Below, piece after piece: positions 42,241-55,312 of a stretch of 64,000 bases of DNA; the stretch's first letter is position 1; every line of letters begins with the position of its first letter. Origin of the DNA: Mobula hypostoma (Eukaryota); contig NC_086108.1 in NCBI RefSeq assembly GCF_963921235.1, positions 68,140,001 through 68,204,000 of the forward strand, in the 5' to 3' direction. The notes under the pieces were generated by a model. That model did no database searches, was not told the origin of the DNA, and saw only the letters and a list, made by a program, of their open reading frames with translations. A program made the position numbers and the translations under genes.

Positions 42241-45200
42241 AAAAGGGAGGGCTCACCAGTGAAAAGGGGGTCCCTGGTGAGCTGGACAATTCTCCCTTCA
42301 GCCCCCCAGACTCGGACGCAGATCCCGGCTACCGTGAATTACCAATGACAGTCCCTGTCCCTATCCAGTTTGGTGGATTCCGGTGCTGAGGGCAGTCTGC
42401 TGGACGAAGACATAGACTCCCAGGCTGGAATACCTCGCGAGACGCTAACTGCTCCCCTGGAGGCCCGGGCTCTGGAGAGAAAACTGCTGGCTCGGGTGAC
42501 CCTGACCTTGATCCTATCCGGCATTGGGAGGAGGTCCGATTCAGTCTCATTCATTCACCTCAAGCCCCGGTAGTTCTAGGGTATCCATGGCTGACCCACC
42601 ACAATCCCCACACCGACTGGTCTACCAGGAGGATAGCCAAATGGAGCCCATCTTGCCATGCCAGCTGTCTGTGGTCAGCCCCATCTCCCAGGGAAGCTAC
42701 CGCGACCCTGCCTGTCCCGGAACCCCTCGATTTGTCCTGAGTCCCCACAGAATACCATGACCTGGGACAGGTATTCAGTAAACAACGGGACCTTTCCCTG
42801 CCTCCGCACCACCCATATGATTGTGCCATTGACCTTCTCCCCGGGGCCTCGCTACTCACCAGTCACCCTTTTAACCTATCCCAACCGAAGAGAGAGATCG
42901 GAGAAGTACATTAGTGAGTCCCCCGCAGTGGGCATTATCAGATCGTCATCCTCCCCGGTTTCCTCTTTGTAGAAAAGAAGGATGGGTCACTTCGTCCTTG
43001 TATTGATTACAGAGGCCCAAGCAGTATAACAGTTAAGAGTAAGTACCCTCTATCCCTCATTAGTTCAGCTTTTGAACCACTGCATGGAGCCACCATCTTC
43101 TCAAAGCTGGACCTTCGTAATGCCTACCATCCAGTCAGGGTGAGGGAGGGGGACGAGTGGAAGACGGCCTTTAATACACCTCTGAGCCACTTCCAATATT
43201 TGGTCACGCCGTTTGGCCTCACCAATGCTCCCGCCATTTTTCAAGCCCTAACCAACGACGTACTAAGGGATTTTATTAATCGGTTCACATTTGTTTACCT
43301 CAATGATATCCTGATATTTTCTAGCACCCCTCAAGAACACGTTCACCATGCCCGTCAAATCCTCCAGAGACTGTGGGAAAACCAGTTACTTGTGAAGGCG
43401 GAGAAATGTGGGTTCCACGTTCCTTCGGTCAGCTTCTTGAGTTATATCAGTGACAGCAGACCCCAAGAAGATCCGGGCAGTGGAAGAATGGCCTAGGCCC
43501 ACAACCCGCAAACAACTTCAACAGTTCCTGGGGTTTGCAAACTTCTACCACCGATTTATCAGAGTACAGTCGAGTGGCGGCCCCCCCTTACCTGGCTTAC
43601 CTCACCTGCTACCCCTTTCTGTTGAGACTCTGAAGCTGACTCGGCATTCACCAACCTGAAGAGGCGTTTCACAACTGCTCCCATCCTGGTCCATCCGGAC
43701 CCAGCCCATCAATTCATTGTTGAGGTGGACGCATCTGACTCCGGAATAGGAGCAGTCCTGTCCCAACAATCAAGCTTGGACGAAAAGCTTCACCCTGCGC
43801 CTTCTATTCTCGCTGACCGTCCCCCGCCGAGTGGAATTACGACGTGGGGAATCGGGAACTCCTGGCAGTCAAACTAGCATTGGAAGAATGGAGGCACTGG
43901 CTGGAGGGGGCAGAACAACTGTTTGTGGTGTGGACTGATCATAAAAACCTGGGGTATATTCAGACCGCCAAATGTTTGAACTCTCGCCAAGCCCATTGGC
44001 CATTATTTTTTGGATGGTTCAAGTTTTCTCTCACATACCGTCCAGGGTCCAAGAACTGGAAGCCAGACACGCTTTCCCGCCAATACGACTCCAAGGAGGA
44101 CACTTCCAGCCCAGGGACTATCCTCCCACCATCCTGCGTGGTTGCCACCCTCACTTGGAAGATCGAGTCTAAAGTAAATGAAGCCCAACAGGATGACCCC
44201 AACCCCGGCAATGGACCCGGCGATCGCCTGCATGTGCCCGTTTCCGTCAGGTCTCAGGTTCTCCAATGGGAGCACACATCTCCATTCGCCTGCCACGCCA
44301 GGAGTGATTGGACTCTAGCGCTCCTGAAAAAACACTTTTGGTGGCCGTCCATGGAGGCGGATACCCATTCCTATGCCTCGGCATGTTCAATCTGTGCCCT
44401 GGGAAAAGCCTCTCATCGGCCACCTGCGGGTTTACTTCGTCCTCTACCTGTCCCTGGTCGTCCCTGGTCACACATTGCCCTCAACTTTATCACCGGTCTA
44501 CCCCCTTCACAGGGAAACACCACCGTACTCACTGTAGTAGACCGGTTCTCCAAGGCAGGCAACTTCATAGCCCGCCCTAAACTCCGTTCATCTCAAGAAA
44601 CTGCAGATCTTCTCATCCGCCACGTCTTCTGCCTCCACGGAATCCCCACAGACATTGTCTCCGATCGAAGTCTTCAGTTTGTCTCACAGGTATGGAAGGC
44701 CTTCTGTCAAGCCTTAGGTGCATCGGTCAGCCGGTCATCCGGCTTCCACCCCCAGATGAACGGGCAGACGGAGTGGGTCAACCAAGACCTGGAGGCGACG
44801 CTACGTTGTGTACTGGCAAACAACCCATCGACCTGGAGTGACCACCTCCTGTGGGTTGAGTACGCCCACAACTCTCTGGTGAGCTCTGCCATTGGAAGGT
44901 CTCCATTCGAGTGCTCCCTGAGGTACCAACCCCCGCTGTTCCCCGCGCAAGAATAGGAGATTGCAGTACCATTGGTTCAGGACCATATCGATCGGTGCCT
45001 TAAGGTTCGGGAGGAGACATGCACGGTCCTTCTCGGATCAGCAAATCGCAATAAAAAGACGGCCAACCGACACCGGAGTCTGGCACCTGAGTACCAACCG
45101 GGGCAGATGGTGTGGCTTTCATCCAAGGACATCCTGCTCAAGCACGAGCAGAGGAAACTCACCCCTCGCTTCCTAGGACCATTCAAGGTCGAAAGTGTTA

Positions 45201-45543
45201 TCAATCCCGCAGAAGTCCGCCTAAAAATGCCAAGATCTATGCGCATCCACCCAACTTTTCATGTTTCCCAGTTAAGCCAGTTTCCATTTGCCCCTTGTGT
45301 CCCCCGGCTGAGACTCCCCCACCTGCCCGTATCATCGACAACCATCCAGCATACACCGTCCGACAACTACTGGATGTGCGCCGTCGGGGCAGGGGTTTCC
45401 AATACCTGGTAGACTGGGAAGGGTACGGTCCAGAACAGCATTCCTGGGTCCCCCGCTCCTTCATCCTAGACCCTTCCCTCATCCAAGACTTTCATCGGGA
45501 CCATCCAGACAGTCCTGGAGGATCGCCTGGAGGCTCCCGTTGA
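42241..45543 (+). pseudogene. Gypsy pol (protease, RT, RNase H, integrase, chromodomain) with multiple stops and frameshifts
   Basis: [120 protein letters not shown]. Confidence 0.95.
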
Positions 45544-53864: not shown

Positions 53865-54463
53865 TGTAATGCCCTGGTTCACATGGTTCATATTGTTTCT
53901 CTGTTATGCTCTTCTGTTCTCTGTGTAAGCTGCTTGTTTTGGGTTACTGTTGAAGATAAGATAGAGGAGAAATGTGCGCCATCCGATGGGGATGAACGGA
54001 TTCAGGGGAGGTTTCTCTGGTGACGGTCACTAAGGTTGGGCTTGGGCTTTTGAGAGGGGAGAAGAGAGAAGATGCCGGAGAGAAGAAGTCAAAGGAGTCG
54101 ATCCAGAGTGGGGCCATGATTCGATGAAGCCCGGGGAGATCGAAGGAGGATCGGCAAAGGGGAAACCGTGCACTTCAACTTATGCACATTAGAGTGTTTC
54201 ATTTAAAATGAGCCCTTTTCTTTTTTTTTTGCTTATTCTTTACTAACCCTTTTAGTCAAATTAAGAATTATAAAGCTAAATCTTTTAATTGTATGTGGTG
54301 TACTGTCCGTTATTTTGTGGTACCTACCTGTAACAGGGTAACAAATCACACAGTTTCCACACAAACAGTGTGATTGGGGGGCTTGCCCTTCAATCTCCAC
54401 GTTTGGCGGGGCCGGAAGGTGTCTTCCCTAGACTTACGCAGCCGACGGAACCGGAGTGTTACA
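53865..54463. mobile_element. Probable solo LTR (599 bp)
   Basis: TGTAA...TTACA ends with an imperfect 16-bp terminal inverted repeat (TGTAATGCCCTGGTTC versus the reverse complement of GAACCGGAGTGTTACA). The 4-bp flanks are CCAA and CCGA. Confidence 0.7.
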
Positions 54464-54645
54464 CCGATGTTACATCTACCGCAGCAATGGTATCATATTA
54501 AATCTGTTCTACTGTTGTAATGCAAGAAATATTTAAGGTTTAACTTAAAGGGAGCCAACAATCTCAAAGTGTTTTAAAATCTACCATTTTTTTTGTGTTC
54601 CGATACTCTTGTATAAAATAGTTTGCACATTTTTAATATGCTTAC

Positions 54646-54857
54646 CCCACTTAGACCAAGCAAATCACTTTTGAAGTAATCCATTTTTCTCCTTCCTAGG
54701 TTATCTAGATAACGTTGCAACTGAGGGTAGGTAGAAAGGAAGCAGTAAGCAAATCGGTACACCCCGTTATCCCAGCAAAACGGCAAATAACATAACATAG
54801 TTTTTCCGCTGATCCAGGCAGAGGTAGTAATAGACATTTTTTGAAGGAAGTCTTTGC
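54646..54857 (-). pseudogene. AGBL4: Internal exon of AGBL4 (cytosolic carboxypeptidase 6, CCP6) with a frameshift and premature stop
   Basis: Acceptor TTATCATTTCCAG|G and donor GGG|GTAAGC. Frame A reads (W)QRLPSKNVYYYLCLDQRKNYVMLFA and frame B continues FCWDNGVYRFAYCFLSTYPQLQRYLDNLGRRKMDYFKSDLLGLSG. Together they match the human AGBL4 segment as I recall it: WQRLPPKNVYYYRCPDHRKNYVMSFAFCFDREEDIYQFAYCYPYTYTRFQHYLDSLQKRNMDYFFREQLGQSV. Confidence 0.88.
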
Positions 54858-55312
54858 CTGGAAATGATAATAGAACAAAAGAATTAGATAAATTTATCAC
54901 TCAGTTGTTCCTTTAATTTACAATTGAACAAAAGCCTACAATACAGTTTTAAGGTCATCTGCTTCTGTTTTGTACTTTGTATTTAAGAGGTACTGTTGCA
55001 GACAGATGAAAATATAAGAGTTGGAGTAAGCAAACTTTTATAACTCATTATCCTGAACACAACAGCAGTTAAATTGCATGATACTGTATATTCTAATGAT
55101 CAGTACAGCAGCAACTTTCAATGATGGCACAATAATGAATACAGCATTTTAATACAGTAAAAATATCACATGACATTACAGAGATGTAATGAAAAGAAGG
55201 ATATTGAGTAAAGCAGGACATACAAAACTAGAAAAAAAATTTGTATTTTAAAGGTCAAAGCAAAAAAGAAATTTGAAAACTCGGGAAGAGTTTAAGAACA
55301 GAATTCTAAAGA

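Follow-up and report, generated by a model that had tools for sequence, protein, structure and literature searches.

An exon of AGBL4/CCP6 in a ray genome is a remnant of an old unitary pseudogene common to several species

The window, a 64-kb stretch of ray DNA (positions 1 to 64,000), lies inside a pseudogene of AGBL4 on the minus strand of contig C50, and the other exons of this gene are located on the same contig outside the window. AGBL4 encodes CCP6, which shortens the glutamate chains carried by tubulin. The window contains one fossil coding exon of this gene, which is present as a single copy in the genome according to a DNA search. It is termed exon 5 here; this and the other exon numbers follow the human numbering. 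The features of this exon and the lesions of the other exons are summarized in Table 1.

Table 1. Features of the AGBL4 exon in the window, and lesions of the other AGBL4 exons on contig C50
Feature	Position	Strand	Remarks
Fossil coding exon of AGBL4/CCP6 (exon 5)	window 54646..54857	-	212 nt vs 217 nt expected
Pyrimidine-rich tract and AG acceptor (...TTTCCAG, then exon)	window 54858..54877	-	canonical still
GT donor (exon, then GTAAGC)	window 54636..54645	-	canonical still
Frame A, 25 codons	window 54782..54856	-	aligns to CCP6 residues 124-148 (shark numbering)
Frameshift zone, net -5 nt	window 54765..54781	-	from alignment to CCP6
Premature TAA of frame A	window 54767..54769	-	upstream of the entire M14 catalytic domain
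Frame B, remainder of exon in shifted frame	window 54646..54780	-	aligns to CCP6 residues ~149-195
Exon 2	C50 68338.9k	-	-1 and -14 nt, compensating
Exon 3	C50 68333.2k	-	TAA and frameshift
Exon 7	C50 67963.9k	-	-1 nt; zinc-motif lead-in ITARVHPGE to IRVHDHPGE
Exon 8	C50 67875.2k	-	TAG, TAG, TGA
Exon 9	C50 67845.1k	-	TGA; DLNRH to DLNQH
Exon 10	C50 67834.0k (67834010-67833865)	-	-7 nt
Exon 11	C50 67807.4k and 67806.1k	-	two TGA; -13, -1, -1 nt; inserted 1.2-kb repeat
Exon 12	C50 67743.1k	-	small frameshift and -15 nt

Translation of exon 5 from 54856 (frame A) gives QRLPSKNVYYYLCLDQRKNYVMLFA, followed by VLLG and the stop codon at 54769-54767, and translation from 54780 (frame B) gives FCWDNGVYRFAYCFLSTYPQLQRYLDNLGRRKMDYFKSDLLGLS. 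The best alignment of the frameshift zone places a gain of 1 nt at ~54781 and a loss of 6 nt at ~54774, and no homopolymer in this zone is longer than 4. The counterpart segment of skate CCP6 consists of 72 codons and one split base, 217 nt in all, indicating that the ray exon has suffered a net loss of 5 nt. The M14 domain (Pfam PF00246) of CCP6 begins at approximately residue 173. An earlier sequence-only reading of this region had described a 212-nt exon with canonical splice sites, a switch of frame near 54775-54781 with a TAA at 54767-54769, a deficit of 5 nt relative to 217 nt in human, and the alterations RCPDH to LCLDQ, SFAF to LFA and YPYTY to FLSTY. The AG and GT dinucleotides are indeed found, on the minus strand, which that reading had left unstated; the translations of both frames agree with the switch and the stop; the length of the skate segment is the same as that given for human; and the three alterations hold against an alignment of 21 sequences. 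Several of the substitutions are recent, because S to L is not found in related species B and C, and P to L, Y to F and P to L are not found in species C.

A weak tblastn match 130 nt upstream of exon 5 (54981-55107), with a score of 70 against a noise level of ~54, does not have a clear exon form and is left as either a chance match or an old partial duplicate. The region 54400-54465 is the edge of a high-copy repeat, which is present in all four sequencing runs compared. Open frames at 42918-45409 (plus strand) resemble a gypsy-type pol, and most of the other long open reading frames in the window look like fragments of LINEs.

When exon 5 is read through with an X at the break, the resultant sequence matches elephant-shark CCP6 (65% over 99% of the query, E 1e-21), which is the one match among 13 candidates. 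The best match is therefore CCP6 and not another CCP paralogue, a possibility that the sequence-only reading had raised against itself. The 46-residue frame B piece alone has no match in the protein collection, Pfam or PDB, and the 70-residue read-through has none in PDB or Pfam. The identity of shark CCP6 to the exons on C50 is 49-85%, as compared to 32-57% to the paralogue loci.

A frameshift-aware scan of 664 kb of C50 recovers nine AGBL4 exons in order on the minus strand, spanning ~596 kb. Their scores are 68-312, as compared to 41-54 for the plus-strand noise. The plus-strand control has a single higher peak (90), which stems from an inverted, partial duplicate of exon 10. This duplicate (C50 67835909-67835985, plus strand) covers the 3' half of the exon, is old, lies 2 kb from it and retains the residues deleted in the main copy. 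Exon 4 and the 40-nt exon 6 do not rise above plus-strand noise in the 664-kb scan, and exon 1 is not located. In total, seven stops and eight net frameshifts are detected in eight of the nine recognisable exons, and no continuous frame runs through the N-domain and the M14 domain. Most exons keep canonical splice sites; a processed pseudogene is excluded, because introns are present and exons with splice sites are spread over this long interval. The bases of the intron that precede exon 2 (C50 68338916-68338891) give a translation nearly identical to the N-terminus of a partial sawfish protein (7/8), suggesting that the annotation of the partial protein extends into intronic sequence and that sawfish and this ray have diverged little at neutral sites.

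The active-site region is also altered. In the motifs of this region, HxxE and H are the zinc ligands, Asn-Arg is a binding pair, and Glu is catalytic. HPGE and DIHAH persist, yet they lie behind stops and in different frames, and the Asn-Arg pair is changed from NR to NQ. The valine equivalent to Val251 of CCP5 is replaced by Asp in the alignment of the ray copy. Replacement of this CCP5 valine by Gly (V251G) is reported as inactivating (PMC10210458).

The pseudogene is flanked by SPATA6 downstream (C50 67.67-67.68 Mb, minus strand) and by an ELAV-family gene, identified to the family only, upstream (C50 68.40-68.48 Mb, plus strand). The order and strand of SPATA6 are as in human. AGBL4 is described as adjoining ELAVL4 in human and stickleback (PMC10685534, PMC10516590). 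The ray copy of AGBL4 thus occupies the ancestral position between SPATA6 and the ELAV gene. BEND5, which the sequence-only reading had proposed as a marker of synteny, is unusable as such, because it has no match in the 664 kb of the AGBL4 locus. A BEND5-like gene with 52% identity in the BEN domain is located on C1 (242.070-242.078 Mb), far from AGBL4, and medaka is likewise reported to have no BEND5 at this locus (PMC10516590).

Five other CCP loci are found on C1, C45, C52, C59 and C2. Their frames are open in the matched exons, and the sampled exons of SPATA6 are also open; these loci and SPATA6 are sampled in matching exons only, not as whole genes. The C2 locus resembles CCP5 in the solved structure, and the names of the other four (C1, C45, C52, C59) are assumed. 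Two inverted fragments of the 3' part of AGBL4, 99.5% identical to each other, are present on C12 at 192.479 Mb (plus strand) and 192.813 Mb (minus strand). They are intron-less, bear stops and cross the exon 10/11 and 11/12 junctions, and are hence partial processed copies. According to these copies, AGBL4 was once expressed in the germ line.

A segment of a glutamylase, which we take to be TTLL6/13-like, is located on C91 (61.91-61.95 Mb) and is present in at least nine further places, which are 89-98% alike and contain introns: one each on C124, C166, C50 (0.28-0.30 Mb), C76 and C70, and four on C40. The comparison of DNA covers these places; C40 has a fifth match (at 42.10 Mb), and C96 a related exon. 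The copies have KFNLR or KFTLR in place of KFDLR, and CFAT in place of RFAT, and may therefore be impaired.

Databases contain intact CCP6 proteins of eight shark genera, sawfish, two skates and elephant shark. The proteins of Pristis (XP_051866643.1), Amblyraja (XP_032883707.1) and Chiloscyllium (XP_043555159.1), which contain PF18027 and PF00246, serve as intact comparators. The ray copy resembles intact CCP6 in that the sequence is orthologous (~80% of the aligned residues are identical to those of sawfish), the exons are collinear, the residues are of the batoid type and the position is syntenic. It differs from intact CCP6 in that it has no open reading frame, two exons are not found, one exon is split by a repeat and the neighbourhood of the active site is altered. 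At seven sites sawfish and skates differ from all six sharks, and the ray copy has the batoid residue at six of them; at the seventh it has Gln, and related species B and C have the batoid His. In a tree of 13 rows and 311 columns the ray copy groups with the batoids with support of 96/93; within the batoids, the tree leaves Pristis, the skates and this ray without a resolved order. The ray copy does not have the skate states at residues 130 and 219. The pseudogene sequence is therefore of batoid identity. Its branch in this tree has a length of 0.20, as compared to 0-0.012 in intact elasmobranchs.

The lesions in related species were analysed using low-depth Logan contigs (depth 2.6-7.3), with one run per species, for exons 5 and 8 only. 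The contig of organism A (run X3) covers 54626-54968 without a difference; because it may derive from the sample used for the assembly, it does not count as independent. In organism B, a contig extends across the whole of exon 5 without an indel relative to the window. The contig of organism C bridges the switch of frame (54705-54895) without a gap, and contains an extra 2-nt insertion near the 3' end of exon 5. Thus, the exon 5 frameshift is common to both relatives tested (B and C), and since these contigs cross the switch without an indel, the 5-nt deficit is not an assembly error. In exon 8, for which contigs of B, C and D cover the whole span, the first stop (TAG) is kept in all three relatives. 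The third stop (TGA) is kept in C and D, and B has acquired a deletion of 2 nt next to this position. The second stop (TAG) is common to B only; C and D have CAG at this position, at which intact genes encode Arg. Lesions common to several species are unlikely to be errors. The preference of the sequence-only reading for a unitary pseudogene over an assembly error is thus borne out by the contigs of B and C. Its proposal of a lineage-specific loss stands as far as the loss is concerned; the loss is old and common to at least four species, rather than confined to this one. Two runs guessed to be RNA (X10 and X13) contain no contig over exon 5 or exon 8, which has no bearing on expression.

Among the 290 sites that are invariant in nine elasmobranchs, 55 (~19%) are changed in the ray copy. 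In a simulation, a change of 19-20% of these sites corresponds to ~0.10 substitutions per site since the loss. The flanks differ at 13/689 sites between A and B, 24/676 between A and C, and 7/264 between A and D, and the exons differ at 19/327 between A and C. Halving the A-C divergences gives 0.018-0.029 per lineage. Comparison of this value with ~0.10 per site since the loss indicates that the loss is older than the A-C split, probably by roughly three to five times, as a relative age. Of 22 distinct exon differences among the species, a small sample that omits three beside the indel of organism C, 16 are nonsynonymous and 6 are synonymous; this proportion (73%) is compared with 72-80% expected under neutrality, and the exon differences among these rays thus appear neutral-like. 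Intact skates differ from sawfish at 5-6 of 313 residues. The identity of CCP6 is 93-100% among intact elasmobranch copies and 73-79% to bony-vertebrate copies; the former range indicates that selection was strong until the loss.

These results suggest, with a probability of roughly 95%, that the exon is part of a dead AGBL4 gene, the sole intron-bearing copy found, and that its loss is old, is common to several species and is likely covered by other CCPs. That assembly or base-calling errors make an intact AGBL4 look broken is practically negligible as an explanation. Long-read assemblies produce indels, which speaks for such errors; however, the exon 5 frameshift and the exon 8 stops recur in other species, whose contigs were assembled separately, seven of the lesions are not indels but point stops, and the sampled exons of the neighbour and the paralogues are open. 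It is very improbable that the C50 copy is a dead duplicate of an intact AGBL4 that has moved elsewhere or is unassembled. The assembly may be incomplete, and the two processed fragments on C12 show that AGBL4 was copied in the past, but these copies are partial and stop-bearing. The C50 copy itself sits in the ancestral SPATA6/ELAV interval, so that the case considered in the sequence-only reading, an intact gene at the syntenic locus with a duplicate here, does not agree with the locus. Searches of the assembly with two proteins, shark and chimaera CCP6, detect only one intron-bearing high-identity locus, that on C50, and no intact second copy, within the limits of assembly completeness. The DNA runs of A, B, C and D, compared at 80% likeness, contain no other class of contig over exon 5 or exon 8.

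Two further explanations concern the cause or the consequence of the loss, and both are unlikely. One, which is compatible with the preferred explanation, is that the protein is lost and part of the locus, notably exon 10, is constrained by a non-coding function in the ELAVL4 neighbourhood, either as an enhancer or as an RNA. Exon 10, in which the third zinc ligand lies, has decayed less than the other exons, with changes at 3/45 invariant sites as compared to 52/245 (21%) elsewhere (Fisher p 0.02, uncorrected); however, heterogeneity across eight exons is not significant (p 0.13), and a 7-nt deletion lies within this exon. The canonical splice sites still present in most exons are consistent with such a constraint, as is an enhancer reported in a nearby intron of fish Elavl4 (PMC10516590). 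The other is that the loss was adaptive, because selection in these rays favoured longer glutamate chains on tubulin or on other substrates of CCP6. The strong earlier selection on CCP6 and the amplification of the glutamylase segment in the same genome agree with this explanation. However, a fossil pseudogene cannot tell adaptive from neutral loss, and the amplified copies, which are candidates known as segments, have altered residues in conserved motifs.

If AGBL4 is a dead gene in these rays, as we prefer, one inactivating mutation would have been fixed in an ancestral ray, followed by relaxed selection and drift of the locus. Translation of any remaining transcript would terminate at a stop in exon 3 or exon 5 and would not reach the zinc-carboxypeptidase domain. 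The loss would be buffered by CCP1-4, which shorten chains, and by CCP5, which removes branches and whose role in cilia overlaps that of CCP6. By analogy with work on mice, fish and cells, this redundancy is the likely reason why the loss was tolerated. CCP1-4 and CCP6 are all described as trimming elongated glutamate chains (PMC13137484), and the functions of CCP5 and CCP6 are described as overlapping in cilia (PMC10210458). Ccp6-null mice are reported to breed, with a megakaryocyte defect and larger litters (PMC5871780), and zebrafish ccp6 morphants are reported not to have the ciliopathy spectrum (PMC4055263). Zebrafish, for which only Ccp1, 2, 5 and 6 are reported (PMC4055263), resembles the ray as a vertebrate lineage with fewer than six CCPs, but it keeps CCP6 and has no CCP3 and CCP4, whereas the ray has five other CCP loci and has lost CCP6.

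We conclude that the ray copy is a genuine unitary pseudogene, that it is old and present in several species, and that the tubulin-code enzyme concerned is strongly conserved. Other unitary pseudogenes include those of GULO and UOX in primates. The ray copy resembles such genes in that it is dead at the ancestral locus, no intact copy is found, lesions are common to several species and the decay is neutral, and it differs from them in that the gene encodes an enzyme of the tubulin code. The sws opsins lost in cartilaginous fishes represent a comparable unitary loss, as reported (PMC12361510). Mechanistically the case is ordinary, in that a partly redundant paralogue has decayed. A single loss of CCP6 may have occurred near the base of a large group of rays, possibly all Myliobatiformes, which would then be the first vertebrate lineage described without CCP6; we propose this tentatively, at somewhat less than even odds. 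As a hint only, none of the 15 members listed for the protein cluster (size 23) is a stingray. A loss of AGBL4 is not reported for any lineage in the literature surveyed, a scope that mostly excludes subscription papers, and annotations may flag the locus. In the ray literature surveyed the term AGBL4 is absent; neither AGBL nor CCP6 is mentioned in the accessible part of a preprint on manta genomes, and the term AGBL is absent from 12 of the 14 supplements of a river-stingray paper. Papers on bats and TGF-beta that name AGBL4 do so for reasons other than a loss.

CCP6 is reported to be linked to centrosomes, cilia, sperm, megakaryocytes, embryos and antiviral responses (PMC9867282, PMC5871780). 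The stops common to several rays are clean markers for ray phylogeny. A lineage that has long been without CCP6 tests which roles of this enzyme are essential and which are covered by its paralogues. If the loss is clade-wide, these rays would have been natural knockouts for tens of millions of years with respect to the roles proposed for CCP6 in cilia, sperm and the control of cGAS.
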